Positions 3,730 to 50,186 of a stretch of 64,000 bases of DNA are shown here, piece after piece (position 1 is the stretch's first letter; the number at the start of each line of letters is the position of its first letter). The position numbers were made by a program, and so were the translations under genes. The notes beneath the pieces were generated by a model that was not told where the DNA came from, made no database searches, and saw only the letters and a list, made by a program, of their open reading frames with translations. Source of the DNA: a virus; the IMG/VR virus record IMGVR_UViG_3300042396_000723, positions 32,185-96,184 of that record; one strand, written 5' to 3'.

Positions 3730-4080
3730 TTATTTTCCCCCCATATCTTGCTTGCCTATTTGTTCTGATTTATCGTTTTTGGGAACGTCAAGGTTGTAGC
3801 GCGATCGCAAGCCACCTAATTTAAACTCGCCACTAAATAGGTTTTTAGCTGTCTCTTTCTTTTCGGGTTTAGTGGAATCGGAAGATTTTTTATCATCGGT
3901 TTTGGGTTCTTCTTTAGGTTTTGCCCAGTCCTCCTTGGGTATCTGCCTAGTTATTTCTGGGATGGTTTTTACCGTTTCGGCTACACCCTTTTTAAACCAC
4001 CAAGGGATTGACTGATTCCAACAAAAGTAAATCAGAAATACCCAACCCAGAACAGATCCAAAATAGAATAAAACTCTCAT
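3730..4080 (-). CDS. membrane protein, Lys/Glu-rich tail (possible lysis accessory)
   Basis: 116 aa; N-terminal hydrophobic helix (VLFYFGSVLGWVFLIYF) then charged region; sits between M23 peptidase and another small TM ORF. Confidence 0.4.
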   Translation of the reverse strand: MRVLFYFGSVLGWVFLIYFCWNQSIPWWFKKGVAETVKTIPEITRQIPKEDWAKPKEEPKTDDKKSSDSTKPEKKETAKNLFSGEFKLGGLRSRYNLDVPKNDKSEQIGKQDMGGK

Positions 4081-13682: not shown

Positions 13683-13912
13683 TACGCCACCTCCTCGTGG
13701 GATTTGTAATATTTCACCGATCCGTTGTCGTAACGATATTCGATCCGATAGACTCGGTTAAATTTATCAGTTTCTTCTTTATTCGGAAATCCTATGATTC
13801 CTTCACATCTGAAGGTGGGATTTTCCCCATTCTCTCCCACCCATTCTTTAAATTCTTGGTAGGTGTCGAAGTTGATGGGTTCGATTCCCAGCGTGATGTA
13901 GTTACTGTTCAT
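13682..13912 (-). CDS. hypothetical small protein
   Basis: 76 aa ORF; 1-nt overlap with the downstream gene. Confidence 0.3.
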   Translation of the reverse strand: MNSNYITLGIEPINFDTYQEFKEWVGENGENPTFRCEGIIGFPNKEETDKFNRVYRIEYRYDNGSVKYYKSHEEVA

Positions 13913-14731: not shown

Positions 14732-15004
14732 TCATCGCTTCTGACTAAAGGACTTGATTGTCACGGTAGGGAACAGGTCTCGGATATCAGCACCGAGGGT
14801 CTTTAAAACAAAATCCAATCTTTCACGACTAACAGATGCAACTTTTCCCTGTTCCCATTTGAGGATTGTGTCAAAGGAAACCGTTGGCTCCGTAAGGGTT
14901 GCAAGTTTTTTTTGCGATATGTTTTTGGCATTTCTTACATCTTGCAATCTAGTCCCAACGTCCTTATCCCAAGCAATTTGGACAATACAGTTATATGGAA
15001 TCAT
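14732..15004 (-). CDS. XRE-family helix-turn-helix transcriptional regulator (CI/Cro-like)
   Basis: HTH segment ISQKKLATLTEPTVSFDTILKWEQGKVASVS; the internal ATG (complement of 15002-15004) is preceded by AGGAG; first gene of the leftward operon, facing the divergent replication operon. The track ORF extends to 15217. Confidence 0.6.
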   Translation of the reverse strand: MIPYNCIVQIAWDKDVGTRLQDVRNAKNISQKKLATLTEPTVSFDTILKWEQGKVASVSRERLDFVLKTLGADIRDLFPTVTIKSFSQKR

Positions 15005-20833: not shown

Positions 20834-21277
20834 ATGAAAACATCAACTAAAGCCAAAACCAAACCCGCTAAAAAAGGATTTCAACCCGCCCCTAAAATTC
20901 ATGACAATGACTTACATATATTTTCTTGTGAGTGCCTTTGGTATGACTCAGAAACCGACGAGGAACTATTGACCGAATTGTGGACAGTCAAACTCGATAA
21001 ACGACGGTTTCGGACTGATGTCAGGCAAGCCATTATTACGGGGTTGATCTATTGCTTTCTTGAAACACCGGAAGCAACGGAACGGCATATTAACAGGGTG
21101 TTTTTTTGGAATAATAAATCCCGTGCCTATGAGCCATTAGGGGCGGTGTCTGACGCGCCGATGGACGGATCTAGTCCGGTTGATTTTGAAGCCGATCCGG
21201 TGGTGGCTTATGAGCGATTAAAAGCCCTTTGTGTCGAGATCGAAGTTATCAAGGTTGACGATTGCTTTTGCTCTTGA
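20834..21277 (+). CDS. hypothetical protein
   Basis: 147 aa ORF immediately after the methyltransferase gene. Confidence 0.35.
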   Translation: MKTSTKAKTKPAKKGFQPAPKIHDNDLHIFSCECLWYDSETDEELLTELWTVKLDKRRFRTDVRQAIITGLIYCFLETPEATERHINRVFFWNNKSRAYEPLGAVSDAPMDGSSPVDFEADPVVAYERLKALCVEIEVIKVDDCFCS

Positions 21278-21288
21278 CCTTTTAAAAA

Positions 21289-21330
21289 TACACAAATAAA
21301 CTTGTTTTTTTTGCGTTATTTGTGTATAAT
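21289..21330 (+). promoter_or_regulatory. 11-bp perfect inverted repeat overlapping a -10-like TATAAT
   Basis: TACACAAATAA (21289-21299), a 16-nt T-rich spacer, then TTATTTGTGTA (21316-21326) running into TGTGTATAAT (TATAAT at 21325-21330). Could act as an operator/promoter or as a terminator hairpin. Confidence 0.3.
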
Positions 21331-21597
21331 GAAAACAGTCAAGAATCAAGGTTTACCAATGTAGTTTGTTGGTAAATAGTTAACCAGTCTAAGCTCTTTA
21401 CTGAGCTACGTTATTGGGAAGTGTTTAAGTTCATACCTTGGGATGCGTTGCCAGTTCCAAGCTCTATAACTAAGTGATTAAACAGATGTACAGCAATTAA
21501 GTCAGCAATACTGCTGATACCCTCTTAATAAGCAGCGATTTCCCACAAATCCCCATAATCTGTTATAACTGGTGAGTAGTTATATGAGGTTGTTTTT

Positions 21598-21798
21598 ATG
21601 GTAAGACCCCACGAACACAGGCAAGAAATCAAAGCCAGACTCAAACCAGAAGATAGGGAGAAGTTGAAAGCCCTCGTCGTTGGCATGGGTTATCGTTATT
21701 GGAGGCAGGAGTCACCGGAACCCGCATGGACTGAGTTTTTGGAGGCGATCGCAACGGGCGATATAATTCTTTACAAAAAAGTCGGGGGAGGGGGTTGA
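21598..21798 (+). CDS. hypothetical small protein
   Basis: 66 aa ORF after a ~320 bp intergenic region. Confidence 0.3.
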   Translation: MVRPHEHRQEIKARLKPEDREKLKALVVGMGYRYWRQESPEPAWTEFLEAIATGDIILYKKVGGGG

Positions 21799-21859
21799 CC
21801 TTTTGGGATAAGTGGGGTACAGTTATAAATGTAGAAGGTTGAAATAAAGGAACAAGACG

Positions 21860-22090
21860 ATGACCACTCAAACCGAGCCAACTAAAATTTACTGCGACCG
21901 GAAATTTTCACTTTACGACGTAACACCCTGGACAGCCGCAAGGCTGACGAATTTCTTTAACTTGGTTGACGATGGTGAAGACGTGAAACGTGCCGTCAAT
22001 GGGTTGAAAACCTGGAAAGGTAGTCAGTCCTACCGCTTGACAATGAGTGACAAAGCTTCGATTGATTACGTTATTGAATGCTACGGTTAA
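21860..22090 (+). CDS. hypothetical small protein
   Basis: 76 aa ORF. Confidence 0.3.
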   Translation: MTTQTEPTKIYCDRKFSLYDVTPWTAARLTNFFNLVDDGEDVKRAVNGLKTWKGSQSYRLTMSDKASIDYVIECYG

Positions 22091-22158
22091 AGATTAATTA
22101 ACCGAGTAAGGTGGCTGCCCTACTCGGTTCGAAGTCAATCATTTAAGAGGAGTATACC

Positions 22159-22668
22159 ATGTCAAGCAAAAAACAGGTCAAGCAATCTTTAGAACTGACA
22201 CTAAGTTTAGCCGAATCACTAGGGCCATTAACACGGTCAGAAGCTAAAGAGTTTTTTGGATTATTGGGAGAACTCAATAAAGTTTTCAGTAAAGTAGTTG
22301 ACCCCGATGCTCACGGCCTAAAACCCGAACCCAGTCCCGAAGTAGTTAAACACCCCATTGATGCCCTACTCAAAAAAGGAAAGGTCGAACTACCAGAGGG
22401 ACGCTACAAACAACTGATTCAGATTCATGACGAGCTTTTAGTCCTCAAGATTAAATTCTTGAGTGCGAAGCAAAATCAGAATGTCACCTGGTTCCCCCTT
22501 GAGTGGAACGGGGATAAGTCAGCCGCGTTGTACTTGTCATCGTCGGAATGGTCTATAGCTCCCATCAAGTACCGAGATGACAACGATTTGACGGGCGAGT
22601 GGGAAGGATTTGATCTTACTGAGTTCATGAGTATGAACTGCCCAGAGTTTGATCAAGACGAATATTGA
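22159..22668 (+). CDS. hypothetical protein
   Basis: 169 aa ORF; AGAGGAG lies upstream of the ATG. Confidence 0.35.
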   Translation: MSSKKQVKQSLELTLSLAESLGPLTRSEAKEFFGLLGELNKVFSKVVDPDAHGLKPEPSPEVVKHPIDALLKKGKVELPEGRYKQLIQIHDELLVLKIKFLSAKQNQNVTWFPLEWNGDKSAALYLSSSEWSIAPIKYRDDNDLTGEWEGFDLTEFMSMNCPEFDQDEY

Positions 22669-22720
22669 TTTCATGGGAGGTCTTACCCTCCCTCCAAGAA
22701 GTAAAGCAGGAGAACAAATT

Positions 22721-22879
22721 ATGCTATATCGCATCACCCGAATCAAAACCGCACCCGACAGAAAAGACCGTCAAGGGTATTATTTAGAAGCCTTGAATGA
22801 GTTAGAGGCTTTGACAAGATTTCATAACCAATTCCCTGAATTTGTAGGGGAAGAATTAGAGTTAGAGGAATGGAATTAA
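22721..22879 (+). CDS. hypothetical small protein
   Basis: 52 aa from the internal ATG at 22721 (preceded by GGAGAA); the track ORF 22649-22879 overlaps the previous gene. Confidence 0.3.
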   Translation: MLYRITRIKTAPDRKDRQGYYLEALNELEALTRFHNQFPEFVGEELELEEWN

Positions 22880-22904
22880 AAGACCTCTAATTCAACTTAA
22901 AACT

Positions 22905-22934
22905 AACCAGGGGTTTATATTCCCTGGTTTTTTG
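22905..22934 (+). terminator. rho-independent terminator candidate
   Basis: Hairpin AACCAGGG / CCCTGGTT with a 9-nt loop followed by TTTTTT, placed between convergent genes (22879 plus, 22939 minus). Confidence 0.5.
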
Positions 22935-22938
22935 CTGT

Positions 22939-23535
22939 TTATCTAATCACAGGGACAGGAATAATCCCCATCAGAATGCCAGATATTTCCTGAAACATTC
23001 GCGTAGTTGTTTGCGTTGCGTCAATTATAATCCAGTTATTTTGCCTAGCCAATTCCAGATATCCGAAGCGAACCCGATCTAAAAAAAGCAAGTCTCGTTC
23101 AACCTTGTCCAGAGGTTTGTCGAGATCGCGGCGCACCGCCACCTCAACAGGACAATCGAACAAAATCACCATATCGGGATCAATTCCCCCCGTCGCCTCG
23201 TGATTTAGCTTCCTTAAATTATCTAAATTAAGCCCGTGCCCATATCCCTGATAGGCAAGTGTTGAATCCGTGTATCGATCACACAATACCAAATCAGAAT
23301 CTTCTAACAAATATCTAATCGTGGGATTGTGTTTAATCCTATCCTTCAGGATTAATTTAAGCTGCTGCTCCGGCGTTAAACACCCATTCTTTAATTCAAA
23401 ACGAACGTCATAATCGCAGGGTTCTCTTGTGATGTAGAACTTTAACTTTAACGCCGTGAAATGGTCGCAAAGTTTTCTAATTTGGGTTGTTTTCCCACTG
23501 CGGTCAATACCTTCAAAAGCAATCAATTTACTCAT
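22939..23535 (-). CDS. tmk: thymidylate kinase (dTMP kinase)
   Basis: P-loop IAFEGIDRSGKTTQ and DRYTDSTLAYQG motifs; first ATG is the complement of 23533-23535. The track ORF extends to 23550 on a TTG. Confidence 0.85.
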   Translation of the reverse strand: MSKLIAFEGIDRSGKTTQIRKLCDHFTALKLKFYITREPCDYDVRFELKNGCLTPEQQLKLILKDRIKHNPTIRYLLEDSDLVLCDRYTDSTLAYQGYGHGLNLDNLRKLNHEATGGIDPDMVILFDCPVEVAVRRDLDKPLDKVERDLLFLDRVRFGYLELARQNNWIIIDATQTTTRMFQEISGILMGIIPVPVIR

Positions 23536-23696
23536 TTCATCCTCATCCAATTTTTAATCAAATCATCTTTAATCATACCTTGCCTTATTAATTCAATTAT
23601 ATATTCTCTAGCTTCCTCCAGTGTCAATATATCCACATTACGTTTAATTATCGCAAGTTTAAATTCTTGCTCCATTGTTAGCTGTGTTGGTTCCAT
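23532..23696 (-). CDS. nblA: NblA-like phycobilisome degradation protein (not in ORF track)
   Basis: My own translation gives 54 aa MEPTQLTMEQEFKLAIIKRNVDILTLEEAREYIIELIRQGMIKDDLIKNWMRMK; its length, predicted two-helix layout, LTxEQEF start and C-terminal KNW fit the NblA pattern (L-[ST]-x-E-Q-[QE]-F ... K-H-Q-W); its stop overlaps the tmk ATG. Confidence 0.5.
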   Translation of the reverse strand: MEPTQLTMEQEFKLAIIKRNVDILTLEEAREYIIELIRQGMIKDDLIKNWMRMK

Positions 23697-23878
23697 TTCC
23701 GTTGTTATAAGAATATCAACACATAGATTATATCAAAAAATATTTTGATTTTTATACCTCTTTAATACAGAATCAAAATATTTTTTTGATTTACCTGTTG
23801 CCAATTGCTCCTGATGATGGATTTAATTTGCCAATGCGTATAGTATAGAAATATATAAATACAGCAGGAGATGGCACA

Positions 23879-24088
23879 ATGCGCGACTATATAAACAGAG
23901 TCCCCGACTATGGGGAAAAGAAAAAGCCTCACAATCTGAGTTTGACCGACACGGCGTGGCAACGGCTTGATAAATTAGCTGCGCTCTTGGGAGTGTCCAG
24001 GAGTGAGTTCGTCGAACGCCTATCCCGTGGAGCGATTGCCCCACAAGACTTACAAGCCTTTTATAAAATTTTTTTAAAAAAAGGTTGA
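23879..24088 (+). CDS. ribbon-helix-helix (CopG/Arc-like) DNA-binding protein
   Basis: 69 aa; LSLTDTAWQRLDKLAALLGVSRSEFVERL is a typical RHH strand-helix-helix signature; the upstream intergenic region carries paired near-palindromes. Confidence 0.5.
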   Translation: MRDYINRVPDYGEKKKPHNLSLTDTAWQRLDKLAALLGVSRSEFVERLSRGAIAPQDLQAFYKIFLKKG

Positions 24089-24114
24089 CAATTTCTAAAG
24101 TATGCGTATATTAT
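24085..24114 (+). promoter_or_regulatory. sigma70-like promoter candidate
   Basis: TTGACA (24085-24090), 18-nt spacer, TATTAT (24109-24114), 30 nt upstream of the ATG at 24144. Confidence 0.4.
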
Positions 24115-24143
24115 AGAATTTGTAAACGCACAGAGGTAACGCC

Positions 24144-24947
24144 ATGACAACCGCAACCACAGCAAAAACCAAAACCGCAGCAAAAACTAAAACCCCTGAG
24201 TGGAAATGGAATAATAATCTGGGGTGTGATGCCCTAAAACTCCCTACAAAGGGATGTCACGTTGACAACAGAGGAAACGTCTGGAAAGACGGCGACTCCA
24301 TTGGTAACGTCACCCCGTTGCCAAATTCAGTTAAGGTGACACCCCTAGAATGGGTTGTCACCCACGAACAAAAACAGGAAGCCGTTTCCTGCGAAAAGCT
24401 ACACGGGAGCTACAAAAAAAACGCGACTCCTGCCCGTCGTAAAGAATCCCCCGATGGGATGCGGGGAGGCAATTCTCAGTGGGGAGAAGTCTCTGGCCCT
24501 AAAGCCCATTTTGTGGCTGATGAGTACGAGGTGATTGTCACCTACACGGCAACTAAAGCCGTCAATCAATTCAGGGAAATTATTGAGGGAAAACCCAAGT
24601 TTCCTTCCCCCACTACCATTGCCTATGAAACGGGCTATGGGAAAGAAACGGAATATACCGTGACCGAGTTGGCCGTCTTAGACTTGCCTACCGAAAAAGT
24701 GGAGAAGGTCTACACAGACCAACGAAAACACCTCTATGGAGAGGCAATCAAGGTTGTCAAAGAATACCTTGACAATTTAGATAAACCCGTTGAAGGGCTG
24801 TTAAAGGTCGGTGACAGCGTGATTCACCCTGTATATGGACAGGGAACTGTCACAAAGGCTTTCGGGACTAAAAACCCCACCTACCAGTCCGTTTGCGCGG
24901 ATTTCCCCTGCGGGAACAAGATGGTAGGAAAATGTGACCTGATATGA
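24144..24947 (+). CDS. hypothetical protein
   Basis: 267 aa ORF with GAGG upstream; N-terminal TTATTAKTKTAAKTKT low-complexity tract. Confidence 0.4.
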   Translation: MTTATTAKTKTAAKTKTPEWKWNNNLGCDALKLPTKGCHVDNRGNVWKDGDSIGNVTPLPNSVKVTPLEWVVTHEQKQEAVSCEKLHGSYKKNATPARRKESPDGMRGGNSQWGEVSGPKAHFVADEYEVIVTYTATKAVNQFREIIEGKPKFPSPTTIAYETGYGKETEYTVTELAVLDLPTEKVEKVYTDQRKHLYGEAIKVVKEYLDNLDKPVEGLLKVGDSVIHPVYGQGTVTKAFGTKNPTYQSVCADFPCGNKMVGKCDLI

Positions 24948-25003
24948 CCTTTTCACTATGATTACCCCACGGAAGCCACAGCTAAAAACAGAGAGGAAAA
25001 ACA

Positions 25004-25501
25004 ATGACAACTTTCACAAAACCAGAAAACCTTTTTGATTCAGTTGATTTTCAAGGATTTGTCGTCGGAGAAGACGACGCGGTAACAACAGTATTGTATC
25101 GGGGTCAAGTCCCCGATTTTAAGCGGAATAAAAAACAGGTCGTAAAGTTTGACTTCGACCTTCACTGCCTAACGGCAAAACACTGGTTTCTAGCTATAGA
25201 GCTATCTACTTCTGACCTTTTGTTTAAGGAGGTAGAAAGTTGTCCTGTTGAACTTCCCAATGAGTTCAAGGATTCAGTTGTCCTGCACCCTGTAAACGGG
25301 AAAGTGGGCGTTTGGGTTGCGCCGATGTCACCCACTGATGTTTCGGGTTGGCAAAAAGCTATGGAAACTACAGCGACAGAGGTAAAAGCCTCTGGTAGTG
25401 TGAAGTTTCGAGGGCTTCACAACCTGTTCAACAGGCTATCCCGCGTTACCCCCAAAACAGGGGTTGTTGGGGGTGCTAAATTCCCGACATGGAGAGACTA
25501 A
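25004..25501 (+). CDS. hypothetical protein
   Basis: 165 aa ORF with GAGAGGAAAAACA before the ATG; lies inside a segment bracketed by direct repeats. Confidence 0.35.
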   Translation: MTTFTKPENLFDSVDFQGFVVGEDDAVTTVLYRGQVPDFKRNKKQVVKFDFDLHCLTAKHWFLAIELSTSDLLFKEVESCPVELPNEFKDSVVLHPVNGKVGVWVAPMSPTDVSGWQKAMETTATEVKASGSVKFRGLHNLFNRLSRVTPKTGVVGGAKFPTWRD

Positions 25502-25506
25502 AAGTA

Positions 25507-25553
25507 GCGATCTCAGGTTAGCTCCTAGCACGGTTCGATTCCGTGCGGTCGCA
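25507..25553 (+). other. tRNA-like 3' fragment (T-arm plus acceptor strand); possible att core or tRNA remnant
   Basis: CACGG-TTCGATT-CCGTG (25529-25545) is a canonical T-stem/loop (GGTTCGATTCC), followed by a 7-nt acceptor-like strand and discriminator A; the element is too short (47 nt) for D and anticodon arms. Confidence 0.4.
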
Positions 25554-25590
25554 TTCCCGAAAGGGATTATTAACTACATAGGCTAAAGCA

Positions 25591-25872
25591 ATGAAGAAAC
25601 ATCAAATCAATGAGCAACTTAGTAAGTTATTGAAACTTACTAACTGCTCTAACCTAGAGGTAACGGTTGACAACAACACCAGGGATTGTATGACCGTCTG
25701 GAAGCTATGGGGTAAAGGTGGGCAAATTGCCCAAGCCGAAGCACGGTTTGGATCGGAATATTCTGATCAACCCGATGGTTTTGCCTTCTATTTAGAAGGC
25801 TACAACTGGACAGATTACTGTCCTACAGTTCAAGATTGTGCCAGCCAACACAAGGAGCGCGCTCTTGTCTAA
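25591..25872 (+). CDS. hypothetical protein
   Basis: 93 aa ORF downstream of the tRNA-like fragment. Confidence 0.3.
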   Translation: MKKHQINEQLSKLLKLTNCSNLEVTVDNNTRDCMTVWKLWGKGGQIAQAEARFGSEYSDQPDGFAFYLEGYNWTDYCPTVQDCASQHKERALV

Positions 25873-25873
25873 T

Positions 25874-26038
25874 ATGACCCATTATTTCGGCTACGAAGTC
25901 GAGATTAAAGATAAATCAGGGAAGTACGCCTGGTTTATCTACCAAGACGGGGTAATCATCTTTTCAAGTGGCTACGATTACCCCACAGAAGCCACAGCCT
26001 ATGACTGCGCTTGCAGTCGCATTGACACATTATTCTAA
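25874..26038 (+). CDS. hypothetical small protein; a decayed partial copy lies at 24945-24982
   Basis: 54 aa from the ATG at 25874; its 5' and 3' segments (ATGACC... and ...GATTACCCCACAGAAGCCACAGC) recur in collapsed form at 24945-24982. Confidence 0.3.
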   Translation: MTHYFGYEVEIKDKSGKYAWFIYQDGVIIFSSGYDYPTEATAYDCACSRIDTLF

Positions 26039-26049
26039 GGAAAAATCAA

Positions 26050-26430
26050 ATGGAAATCATTAACGCTACACCCCATCAAATCGTTATCTGTAGCAACCAA
26101 GGGGTTGTCCAAGATGCAAAGACTAAGCAATTCACAGCTTCGGCTGTTGAGATCCTCCACACCCTGCCACCATCGGGAATCATCCCCCGCGTGGCGATGG
26201 GGAATACCGAATCCGAACCCATTTTAGGTATTCCAGTCCAAAGCGTTCAATATGGCGAGATTGAGGGACTCCCCCCTGCGTCTCCCGATGTTTATTATGT
26301 AGTGTCGGGACTGGTAGCAGCAGCCGCCGTTAAAGTGAACAGGGCTGATTGCCTGGCTCCGGGTGCGCTAGTCCGCAATTCTGCCAACCCATCAGAGGTG
26401 TTAGGCTGTCTTTTTTTGCAAAAGCCCTGA
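26050..26430 (+). CDS. hypothetical protein
   Basis: 126 aa ORF, last intact gene of the plus block. Confidence 0.35.
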   Translation: MEIINATPHQIVICSNQGVVQDAKTKQFTASAVEILHTLPPSGIIPRVAMGNTESEPILGIPVQSVQYGEIEGLPPASPDVYYVVSGLVAAAAVKVNRADCLAPGALVRNSANPSEVLGCLFLQKP

Positions 26431-26432
26431 TT

Positions 26433-26537
26433 GGCGACGGTTGCCCCCGGTGTGGTAGTCATAGGCTGGTTAGATATGGTTACACCGAACACGGTCGCCG
26501 CCGAATGAAATGCAAGGATTGTAATAAATTATTTTAA
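26433..26537 (+). pseudogene. transposase N-terminal zinc-ribbon remnant (IS1/IS1595-like)
   Basis: In-frame GDGCPRCGSHRLVRYGYTEHGRRRMKCKDCNKLF then a stop; the C-x2-C...C-x2-C block matches transposase N-terminal zinc ribbons; no canonical start codon and no catalytic domain follow. Confidence 0.45.
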
Positions 26538-26542
26538 AATCA

Positions 26543-26573
26543 ACCCTCTAAATATTTAGAGGGTTCTTTTTTT
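26543..26573. terminator. bidirectional rho-independent terminator candidate
   Basis: Perfect 10-bp stem ACCCTCTAAA / TTTAGAGGGT with a 2-nt loop, T-run downstream on plus and A/T-rich on minus; sits between convergent gene blocks. Confidence 0.55.
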
Positions 26574-26575
26574 GA

Positions 26576-27265
26576 TTATCTGATAATCGTTAACGTCGTA
26601 GTCTCTGGCAACTTCACCCACGGATAAACGATCCGCCAAACATCGTGACTATAAATATTTTTCGTCATGTACCGGGCGTCGGGAACTTGTTTAATCTCTA
26701 TCCCCATCTTAATACTCATCGCTTTGAGAGGTCGCCAACTGAAGTTAGACTCATGAACTTTATTGAACTTGGCAACCCTGATGATTGACGAATAATCAAA
26801 AAGTTCATCCAAAGCCTCGGACAGTTGATTGTTTTCTTCCTCAAGCAGTGCTTTCTCGGCCTCTAACTTTTCTACCTCTAACGCCAATCGTCCAGCCTCT
26901 AGCAAAGCCTGAGCATAGGTTTGTGGTAACGCAAGCGGGGTCTGAACGTGGTTATTCTTAGCAAGGGAGAAAGCCTCAACTAACCGTTCTTTGCAATCCA
27001 AAACCTGATCACTGTTTCGGGAAAACGTCATCAAAAGTGTTGCTTGTGCTTCATTCAAGAAACAGTAAGAGACTTCGTAAGCCCCACCCTGCGGGCGTCT
27101 CACCACGTCCGTTTTAAACGCGACTGGTGTTTTTCGTTCTAATCGGTCTAAATACTTTGTGATTGTTTGCAGTAAGTTCTTATGTTGAATCCCCAGTTCA
27201 TCAGCAATCAATCGGGAATCGACAACTAAGGTGTCATTCTGTGTGGTAATGTCAAGAATAGCCAT
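26576..27265 (-). CDS. phage regulatory protein, Rha-family N-domain with antirepressor-type C-domain
   Basis: N-terminus LVVDSRLIADELGIQHKNLLQTITKY resembles the Rha family; the C-terminal ~110 aa are about 60% identical to the C-terminus of ORF 49458-50186. Confidence 0.55.
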   Translation of the reverse strand: MAILDITTQNDTLVVDSRLIADELGIQHKNLLQTITKYLDRLERKTPVAFKTDVVRRPQGGAYEVSYCFLNEAQATLLMTFSRNSDQVLDCKERLVEAFSLAKNNHVQTPLALPQTYAQALLEAGRLALEVEKLEAEKALLEEENNQLSEALDELFDYSSIIRVAKFNKVHESNFSWRPLKAMSIKMGIEIKQVPDARYMTKNIYSHDVWRIVYPWVKLPETTTLTIIR

Positions 27266-31875: not shown

Positions 31876-32310
31876 TTAATATCCTCTTACTAATCGAACT
31901 GATTTACCACTAGGAATTACCAACTCAATAGCGGGGTATAGAACATTATTAATGGCCTCAAAGTTTAGATTTTCACCGGATGAAAATGTTAATCCATTAA
32001 TAGTTACATCCCCTACGAGTACCTTTAAATAAATGAAATAACTACCAGTTGCAATTGTTGTATTTGTTGTTAGCAATCTACAATCTAACTCGGCGGTTAT
32101 TGTTGGTAAAGAGACTGGGACTCTACCACTTGATAAAGATGGAAGTTTGGCGTTGATCGCACCAAGTGTTGCTTCCGCAGATCCCCCGTCGTTTGAGATA
32201 GCACGATAAATCTCCCAGTAGGGAAGTGTCTGTGCCGGGTTCTCCAGGGCTTCTATTTGCTCTTTAATTAAAGCAGCCGCCTCCGTTTGCTGTGTACTAA
32301 TATCAGGCAT
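31876..32310 (-). CDS. hypothetical protein (tail module)
   Basis: 144 aa ORF between two large structural-type genes. Confidence 0.35.
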   Translation of the reverse strand: MPDISTQQTEAAALIKEQIEALENPAQTLPYWEIYRAISNDGGSAEATLGAINAKLPSLSSGRVPVSLPTITAELDCRLLTTNTTIATGSYFIYLKVLVGDVTINGLTFSSGENLNFEAINNVLYPAIELVIPSGKSVRLVRGY

Positions 32311-49457: not shown

Positions 49458-50186
49458 ATGACTAATTTATCATTATTACCTGACGATATTCGTTCTGAAT
49501 TTTCCGTTAACGATCAAGGTCAGGCTTTTGCGAGTAGACGGGCGATCGCACGGTTGGCAGGCGTTTCTCATGTGTCCATCGGGAATCTATTGGATAAAAT
49601 CGCTGTTAACCTAGACCTCCCCGAAAGCATTGAAATCCTTGGAGGGCAGGACTTTGAGGGTGTTAACCTGATCCCTGATACCGTTGCCTCCCGGATTATT
49701 GAGTATTACGCTTTTGATGCTAAACGTTATTGCACAGAACAAGCCAAGCGAGTTTATAAAGCATTCGGGGCTATCGGGTTTCGGTCGTGGGTACAAACTG
49801 AATTAGGTTGGCAATATTCACAACCTAAGTTACCTCAGACTTATGCTGAGGCATTACTGGAGGCGGGACGGTTAGCGTTAGAAGTGGAGAAGTTGGAAGC
49901 CGAGAAAACATTGCTTGAGCAAGAGAATGGCGAACTCTCCAAAAATTTAGATGAGTTATTTGATTATTCCTCTATTGTTCGGATTGCCAAGTTTAACCAA
50001 ATCTCAGAGAAAATCTTTAACTGGCGGTTACTCAAGGCATTGAGTCTTAAAATGGGGTTAGAAATTAAAAAAGTCCCGTGTCCCAGGTTTGAGACAAAAA
50101 GCCTATATTCTCACGATGTCTGGCGTGTTGCTTATCCTGAAATGAAGCTACCAGAAACGACAACGCTAGTTATTAACAGAGGATAA
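49458..50186 (+). CDS. antirepressor-like protein, paralogous in its C-domain to the Rha-family gene at 26576-27265
   Basis: C-terminus PQTYAEALLEAGRLALEVEKLEAEK...YSHDVWRVAYPEMKLPETTTL is near-identical in pattern to 26576-27265; the N-terminal domain is different. Confidence 0.5.
   Translation: MTNLSLLPDDIRSEFSVNDQGQAFASRRAIARLAGVSHVSIGNLLDKIAVNLDLPESIEILGGQDFEGVNLIPDTVASRIIEYYAFDAKRYCTEQAKRVYKAFGAIGFRSWVQTELGWQYSQPKLPQTYAEALLEAGRLALEVEKLEAEKTLLEQENGELSKNLDELFDYSSIVRIAKFNQISEKIFNWRLLKALSLKMGLEIKKVPCPRFETKSLYSHDVWRVAYPEMKLPETTTLVINRG

Follow-up and report, generated by a model that had tools for sequence, protein, structure and literature searches.

A tRNA-like mini-helix coupled to a hairpin at small-gene junctions of PaV-LD-like cyanophages: a candidate t-element-like processing signal and cassette seam

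The t-elements of plant mitochondria, which were found with the motif GGTTCRANYCC, guide RNase P and RNase Z to their cuts in mRNAs (Forner et al. 2007, PMC1920247). A module with a matching motif, named element E here, lies between two small genes in a 64,000-nucleotide (nt) stretch of the IMG/VR virus record IMGVR_UViG_3300042396_000723 (positions 32,185 to 96,184). This stretch, referred to as the window, belongs to a relative of the Planktothrix phage PaV-LD (NC_016564), with ∼90% nucleotide identity across 22948-24940 and synteny over most of the 64 kb. Like the mitochondrial elements, E shows a non-canonical tRNA-like fold with a perfect T-arm and an acceptor-like stem and is placed within an mRNA precursor beside coding regions. 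Cuts by RNase P and RNase Z that make mRNA ends are proposed or shown for the t-elements and are proposed for E. In contrast to the t-elements, E belongs to a bacteriophage or cyanobacterial context, is smaller and has no analogue of a D or anticodon arm, which is replaced by a linker of 7 to 27 nt across the family. A hairpin, a Shine-Dalgarno-like spacer and an ATG always follow it, and it recurs in several copies at cassette boundaries; a common ancestry with the t-elements is not implied.

Several other described systems share individual features with E. RNase P, RNase Z and the CCA-adding enzyme all recognise the acceptor/T mini-helix of tRNA. Among the Rfam families, mascRNA / MEN-beta tRNA-like (RF01684) comes closest to E, though weakly; it is a tRNA-like structure in a longer transcript that is excised by RNase P and RNase Z. 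Unlike E, mascRNA is eukaryotic and nuclear, forms a cloverleaf with an anticodon-like arm and stands in another context, and the scores of E (15.8 bits) and of the element in the phage locus L144 (22.9 bits) stay far below the gathering score of 42.5. RAGATH-36 (RF03104) begins with a T-arm-like hairpin and matches E weakly, its 18.6 bits lying far under the gathering score of 70, and is built differently. Type II hammerhead ribozymes of phages (Hammerhead_II, RF02276) also occupy gaps between small same-strand genes, in L144 successive ones, whereas E lacks a ribozyme core and its cleavage would require host enzymes. Promoter-early stem-loops (PeSLs) of T4-type phages and other intergenic linkers that mediate modular shuffling are short conserved elements flanking small variable genes, and recombination inside them swaps cassettes. 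E likewise flanks variable small genes, and its chimeric copies show swapping, with the difference that E has no promoter-like sequence and is tRNA-like rather than a simple stem-loop. No Rfam family matches E or the modules of its relatives, and literature searches found no description of the element; the combination of a tRNA-like mini-helix and a hairpin in small-gene operons of phages is an uncatalogued module family.

The original prediction had noticed at 25507-25553 a T-arm and the 3' strand of an acceptor stem without D or anticodon arm. Both parts are present (Table 1), with GGTTCGATTCC located at 25532-25542, and the missing arms are borne out: ARAGORN reports no tRNA or tmRNA gene in the window and no tRNA gene in 20 related loci, and the Rfam tRNA model (RF00005) gives no match at E<=10. 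A canonical tRNA gene with its cloverleaf was rejected on these grounds. A tmRNA, including the permuted cyanobacterial form (RF01851), was rejected as well, as ARAGORN finds none and RF01851 reaches 11.6 bits against a gathering score of 70 by matching the T-arm only. The description of the piece as a mere 3' fragment of a tRNA does not hold, since a 5' acceptor-like strand and a GNRA hairpin had been overlooked. The 5' strand pairs at 6 of 7 positions with the 3' strand, and the module folds with a minimum free energy of -25.7 kcal/mol (z -2.6). With canonical tRNAs E does share a 12-bp stack of acceptor stem and T-arm, a T-loop of the form TTCRANY (TTCGATT) and the G53:C61 closing pair. E lies 5 nt past the stop codon of one open reading frame (ORF) and 24 nt ahead of the next ATG, inside a predicted unit bounded by a promoter-like site and a palindromic terminator-like hairpin. 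Covariance model R1 and a structural descriptor, run over the window, find E alone; motif searches gave chance matches only, such as GGTTCGATTCC at 13878 within a minus-strand ORF.

Pattern scans of IMG/VR and JGI metagenomes together with model R1 yield 18 distinct E sequences, all of them in PaV-LD-like contigs with 1-3 copies per phage; the metagenome scan gave nothing beyond near-identical PaV-LD-type copies. PaV-LD itself carries two full copies and one partial copy at the homologous place, each just past a small ORF. All PaV-LD-type copies run sense to the genes, start 1-15 nt past a stop codon and end about 20-30 nt before an ATG. In the alignment of these copies (12-18 distinct sequences), 96.5% of the cells are paired and 3 pairs show double changes, with two main allele groups. 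The T-stem contains two compensatory pairs (CACGG/CCGTG vs CTGGG/CCCAG), one position of the acceptor stem occurs as U-A, U-G and C-G, and RNAalifold independently predicts the same fold. The cells that deviate from Watson-Crick pairing comprise 16 G·U and 1 A·C, which indicates that the gene-sense strand is the folding strand, as expected for an RNA. The acceptor strands are related to the octamer GCGATCGC, the highly iterated palindrome HIP1 of cyanobacteria: in several copies both strands are full HIP1 octamers, and those of the window copy agree at 7/8 and 6/8 bases. The window contains 24 such octamers where base composition predicts 0.45, a 50-fold enrichment, and PaV-LD contains 46 where 0.65 are predicted; the phage shares this oligonucleotide signature with its host. 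Among viral contigs, most of 55 loci with GRTCGCATTCCCGAAA are chance matches without the element, and the L002-type match to CAGGTTAGC was rejected as unrelated sequence.

A scan for HIP1-armed mini-helices led to another cyanophage contig, the HIP1-rich IMGVR_UViG_2830687482_000004 (loci L112 and L129); L112 has no match in the phage collection and is unrelated to PaV-LD. Model R1 flagged five sites there, in a 2-kb array of small same-strand ORFs of L112, through the conserved T-loop and hairpin. Reading of the sequence gives six modules in L112 and three more in L129, about nine diverged copies, each ordered as acceptor-like stem, GG-containing linker, T-arm, one base (A or T), hairpin, T-rich and Shine-Dalgarno-like stretch, and ATG. 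The T-loops read TTCGATT, TTCGCGT or TTCGAGT, and no two modules agree in their stem sequences. Other cyanophage-like contigs (L113/L117/L130, L131 and L121/L133) have modules of the same build, as do phages without HIP1 (L139, L144, L149, L181, L184 and L199). HIP1 arms are absent from the modules of L112/L129, except module E6 of L112, and from the non-cyanobacterial members. In every member the acceptor and T stems stack to exactly 12 bp, split as 7+5, 6+6 or 5+7, which is the length of the acceptor/T mini-helix of tRNA. The hairpin follows 3' of the mini-helix in all members, and the orientation and the distance to the stop codon given above apply throughout the family, with the next ATG about 20-35 nt past the module. 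The position of the linker shifts between members with the split of the stack, and diverged members were for this reason sought with a descriptor script instead of a general covariance model. The descriptor gives 58 matches in 1.2 Mb of loci compared to 3 in shuffled copies. Real tRNA genes are lacking from these cyanophage loci, and pattern matches without the mini architecture are ordinary phage tRNA arrays, easily recognised by Rfam (39-78 bits for tRNAs of the control loci).

Hammerhead type II ribozymes and tRNA-like modules occupy successive small-gene gaps in unrelated phages that lack HIP1 (L144 715-783, 1111-1178 and 1377-1436; L149 9328-9396; L181 5958-6027). Of three consecutive gaps in L144, one contains a Hammerhead_II ribozyme of 65.8 bits, one a second Hammerhead_II match that at 30 bits stays under the gathering score, and one a tRNA-like module with its hairpin. 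In L149 and L181 the hammerhead lies 350-600 nt upstream of the module on the same strand.

The genes around E differ between related phages. Positions 24948-26040 of the window form a variable cassette block, and in L022 and L058 a single E takes its place. The gene order of the window type is ORF267, a gene remnant, ORF165, E, ORF93, a small gene and ORF126, whereas PaV-LD shows ORF024R, E, ORF025, E, ORF026 and partial E, and L022 and L058 show ORF267, E and ORF126. The gene content 3' of the ORF024R/ORF267 homologue varies among the phages, and the differences begin at E. L019 and L021 contain an extra cassette X flanked by two E copies. The second, right-hand E of L019 is identical on its left side to the E after X in L003, which carries cassette X plus E at a different genome position, and on its right side to the E of the window. 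This chimeric copy places a crossover within the shared CAGGTTAGCTCCTAGCACGGTTCGA, a stretch of 25 nt. As shown by such chimeras, crossovers fall inside E, which, being conserved, serves as a patch of homology for cassette exchange between phages. The partial E of PaV-LD resembles a deletion between two HIP1 arms. A separate observation concerns several unrelated ORFs 5' of E, which end alike in GAC TAA or GAC TGA (window 25496-25501, PaV-LD 14794-14799 and the end of cassette X in L019 and L003); the final codon together with the stop may be part of the module that is exchanged.

For E, a t-element-like role as an intercistronic processing signal for host RNase P and RNase Z, combined with that of a cassette-swap seam, is the preferred reading, held with about even confidence. 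In this model, the host enzymes of tRNA maturation would recognise E within the transcript, with a predicted RNase P cut ahead of G25507 and a predicted RNase Z cut behind A25553; the latter would place the start of the ORF93 message 1-2 nt upstream of the hairpin. The operon mRNA would be severed between its cistrons, leaving a protective 5' hairpin on the downstream one; a hairpin at the very 5' end is known to protect bacterial mRNAs. The wider proposal, held more tentatively, is that uncatalogued "phage t-elements" exist in several lineages, in cyanophages as well as in unrelated low-GC phages, where they would cut polycistronic mRNAs via host RNase P and RNase Z, be interchangeable with hammerheads and provide a plug-and-play junction through which small-gene cassettes could pass from one phage genome to another without losing their expression signals. 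If the processing model applies, phages with a minimal tRNA mimic would borrow the tRNA-maturation enzymes of the host for mRNA processing, as a bacterial-virus counterpart of mitochondrial tRNA punctuation and of mascRNA. This would explain the one-by-one expression and stabilisation of arrays of small orphan genes and would give a sequence-level handle on the shuffling of cassettes that often encode host-takeover or anti-defence functions. In practice, cyanophage genomes can be searched for cassette arrays by means of E, and it cautions annotators that T-arm-like fragments are not automatically att sites.

A number of points weigh against the processing model. Cleavage by RNase P would leave the 3' end of the upstream cistron unprotected. 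The PaV-LD-type copies contain only two main stem alleles and thus few independent covariation events, which is modest evidence alone; copies with two perfect HIP1 arms have an extended rod as their minimum-energy fold, and copy 2 of PaV-LD lacks the T-loop consensus. Across the wider family, with linkers removed, double changes occur in 11/12 pairs, and the T-loop-closing pair (equivalent to G53:C61) is G-C in 16/16 sequences, but these 16 were picked by a descriptor demanding pairing, so that 100% pairing is built in and the covariation statistic is partly circular. Support free of this circularity comes from the L112 copies, which were found via loop and hairpin and are arrayed at equivalent positions, and from the descriptor counts in real and shuffled loci. 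A hammerhead stands near the module in 3/7 loci compared to 0/12 control loci, a link that concerns few contigs of probably related phages and is anecdotal.

The segment around E is flanked by direct repeats, which the original prediction gave as 23 bp and took, together with the tRNA-like piece, as the signature of a past recombination event. The repeat is real and comprises 27 nt (24956-24982 vs 25972-25998), so that the right copy ends at 25998 and not at 25999; 25/27 positions are identical, whereas 1e-6 such pairs are expected in 3 kb and the best pairs in 20 shuffles reach 18-20 of 27. The view of the left copy as part of a collapsed duplicate of the small gene at 25874-26038 is confirmed, as the start, inner codons and the 27-mer match, with deletions between them. 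The remnant reads ATGACC, TTTTCA and CTATGATTACCCCACGGAAGCCACAGC, which in the intact gene correspond to the region of the start codon, to codons ∼30-31 and to codons ∼33-42, and it differs from that gene by an 81-nt and a 5-nt deletion; TATGACC is also the end of the 267-aa ORF in the relative L111, and these letters may derive from the upstream gene instead. Both mismatches of the 27-mer are synonymous in the YDYPTEATA frame. In all contigs sharing the gene order of the window, the remnant is 98-100% identical, though their ORF267 genes are only 81-85% identical. The most plausible reading of the repeat is a pair of paralogous small-gene copies, of which the left one would have lost part of its length in an ancient illegitimate join to the ORF165 cassette before it eroded. 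The recombination signature thus stands for the 27-nt repeat as a relic of rearrangement and falls for the tRNA-like piece: the repeat is unrelated to E and brackets no mobile unit defined by it. The remnant also lies in the same frame as the 267-aa ORF, right after its TGA (...KCDLI*PFHYDYPTEATAKNREEKQ*), which is taken to be coincidental. Read-through of the TGA at 24945 into the remnant was dropped, as no signal supports it and the remnant is clearly a decayed gene copy.

Three of the alternatives explain E as a recombination site in DNA. The original prediction suggested an attachment (att) site core. On this reading, the piece would stem from the 3' end of a host tRNA or tmRNA gene, retained in the phage as attP or left over from integration or excision, and the repeats would be the duplication from this event. 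The T-arm and 3' acceptor strand do resemble the 3' end of a tRNA, as in the tRNA-gene attP/attB cores of tyrosine integrases, direct repeats lie on both sides of the segment, and the relative PaV-LD encodes a tyrosine integrase. Contrary to such cores, E shows no host tRNA identity: a scan of 185,579 species genomes (one genome per species) for exact 25-nt matches to CWSGGTTCGAYTCCSWGYGRTYGCA, a pattern of T-arm plus 3' acceptor covering all observed variants, gives 2 matches in unrelated tRNAs, an archaeal tRNA-Gly and a Planctomycetota tRNA-Lys, and none in cyanobacteria. E has its own 5' acceptor strand as a complete folded module, occurs in 1-3 copies per PaV-LD-like genome and ∼9 diverged copies in another contig with stems that differ while pairing stays, and has no adjacent integrase; the repeats are coding sequence of a duplicated gene. 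The expectation that the window is free of an integrase was correct, and the PaV-LD-type integrase is absent from all contigs of its gene order, including those of 98 kb and 87 kb. PaV-LD ORF018R is a genuine tyrosine integrase with close homologues only in contigs of other cassette orders, and a separate tRNA 3' fragment lies ∼130 nt upstream of it (L063 10242-10395). This fragment, GCAGG-TTCAAAT-CCTGT-CGCTCCGA (PaV-LD fragment GCAGGTTCAAATCCTGTCGCTCCGA), precedes a terminator hairpin and four GATTAGAC repeats, is 100% conserved in 15/16 integrase-carrying relatives and missing from the window. The layout is that of a classical attP, and the fragment probably represents the genuine attP of the PaV-LD group; its acceptor looks Ser-like, and it suggests lysogeny at a host tRNA. 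The att-core reading of E is largely refuted by these findings and is now barely credible. An integron-like site, at which a recombinase would recognise folded single-stranded E DNA in the manner of attC and capture promoterless cassettes behind one promoter, is very improbable. It would agree with the promoterless small ORFs in one orientation behind a single promoter, each followed by an element conserved in structure and variable in sequence, and with cassette X plus E at two genome positions. Yet neither the window nor relatives of its gene order contain a recombinase, the PaV-LD integrase has its own classical attP, the conserved core of E is a T-loop and not a pair of R/L boxes (no such pattern was seen by eye; a formal attC model was not run), and the crossover interval is a shared 25-nt stretch that fits ordinary homologous recombination. 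A linker of two HIP1 palindromes acting purely in DNA recombination, with the structure as a by-product of palindromic arms and no RNA function, is improbable to a lesser degree. The crossovers within E, the HIP1 or HIP1-like arms in a HIP1-enriched phage and the partial PaV-LD copy are in line with it. Exchange by homology would need conserved sequence, however, and the diverged members keep the architecture with unrelated stems and without HIP1 arms. The 16:1 excess of G·U over A·C is strand-specific, the T-loop and its closing pair are invariant in a stack fixed at 12 bp, and the placement relative to stop and start codons is fixed.

The two remaining alternatives operate at the RNA level. 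The excised mini-helix of ∼47 nt could be a stable trans-acting tRNA-like RNA that might receive CCA or an amino acid and titrate or decoy a tRNA-binding factor or a tRNA-targeting defence. The structural evidence is the same as for processing in cis, mascRNA, to which E comes closest in Rfam though weakly, is a stable product in its own right, and mini-helices serve as substrates for the CCA-adding enzyme and some aminoacyl-tRNA synthetases. This explanation is nevertheless rather unlikely: an RNA without an anticodon arm cannot decoy anticodon nucleases, the stems, and hence any identity elements, vary freely among copies, and the coupling to hairpin, Shine-Dalgarno-like spacer and ATG as well as the alternation with hammerheads favour a cis role. 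Similarly unlikely is a decaying tRNA pseudogene, the remains of a phage tRNA gene plus its terminator, or a cis-regulatory 5' untranslated region or attenuator unrelated to tRNA enzymes, in which E would be neutral or act through its hairpin only, either in weak termination or in the control of translation. In favour of this, the linker looks like the remnant of a D-loop (GGTTAG), 3-5 T follow the hairpin in several family members, and phages often carry tRNA genes, the control loci being tRNA arrays. Against it stand the same truncated architecture in many lineages with compensatory changes, the lack of intact tRNAs nearby, the shortness of the hairpins (4-6 bp) and a spacer of ∼25 nt that leaves the downstream genes without a promoter of their own. 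The partial PaV-LD copy, which lost its tRNA-like part, sits past the last gene of its array.

The features of the cassette operon are collected in Table 1. NblA, a thymidylate kinase and a Rha-type regulator are among the neighbouring genes. Searches of Pfam and PHROGs gave nothing informative on the function of the cassette genes, and the 267-aa ORF belongs to no Pfam or PHROG family.

Table 1. Coordinates of element E, its parts and the surrounding cassette operon in the window
Feature	Position	Strand	Remarks
RHH (CopG-type) small ORF	23879..24088	+	5' of operon promoter; Pfam RHH_1 E 2e-4, 21.6 bits vs cut-off 20.5
Promoter-like site TTGACA-16-TATATT, 11/12	24085..24112	+	head of cassette operon; predicted from consensus scan only
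267-aa ORF, homologue of PaV-LD ORF024R	24144..24947	+	operon gene 1; ∼81-90% nucleotide identity to relatives
Decayed remnant of small-gene copy	24945..25003	+	contains left 27-nt repeat; in frame behind TGA of 267-aa ORF
165-aa orphan ORF (cassette gene)	25004..25501	+	stop TAA 25499-25501
Element E, complete 69-nt tRNA-like module	25503..25571	+	covariance model R1: 91 bits, E 2.8e-18; only copy in the window
E, 5' acceptor-like strand GCGATCT	25507..25513	+	7/8 bases of HIP1 octamer
E, linker of 15 nt, CAGGTTAGCTCCTAG	25514..25528	+	in place of D and anticodon arms; invariant GG kept
E, T-arm, stem CACGG/CCGTG, loop TTCGATT	25529..25545	+	compensatory stem alleles include CTGGG/CCCAG and GAGGG/CCCTC
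E, 3' acceptor-like strand CGGTCGC plus discriminator-position A25553	25546..25553	+	
E, GNRA hairpin TCCC-GAAA-GGGA	25555..25566	+	followed by A/T-rich spacer with AGG and next ATG at 25591
93-aa orphan ORF (cassette gene)	25591..25872	+	
54-aa small gene, intact copy	25874..26038	+	contains right 27-nt repeat 25972-25998
126-aa ORF, phrog_21731	26050..26430	+	directly 3' of ORF267 plus E in L022 and L058
Palindromic bidirectional terminator-like hairpin, operon end	26542..26565	.	Rha gene 26576-27265 converges from opposite strand

The region 5' of the operon also differs from that of PaV-LD, as 7.9-12.8 kb of PaV-LD, with the integrase and a PAPS reductase gene, is replaced in the window at 21263-22948 by ∼1.7 kb of different sequence. 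The cassette operon starts with the RHH ORF and the strong promoter-like site (23879-24112), and in L003 (∼3730-3990) a paralogous RHH ORF and promoter precede cassette X plus E at the other genome position. At the opposite end, the palindromic terminator AACCCTCTAAATATTTAGAGGGTT (window 26536-26575) is a second repeated boundary element, which is also found at cassette borders, on the minus-strand side, in L012, L036, L058 and PaV-LD (15622 and 16127). A 62-aa ORF at 26349-26537 (plus strand) overlaps the 3' end of ORF126 in a different frame and resembles the zinc ribbon of IS1595/InsA-type transposases, with a Pfam match (E 6e-5) that narrowly misses the cut-off; the ORF may be what is left of a transposase or else a small gene for a zinc-ribbon protein. 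The Rha-family gene at 26576-27265 (minus strand) has a paralogous stretch with ∼71% identity at 49829-50180 in the window.

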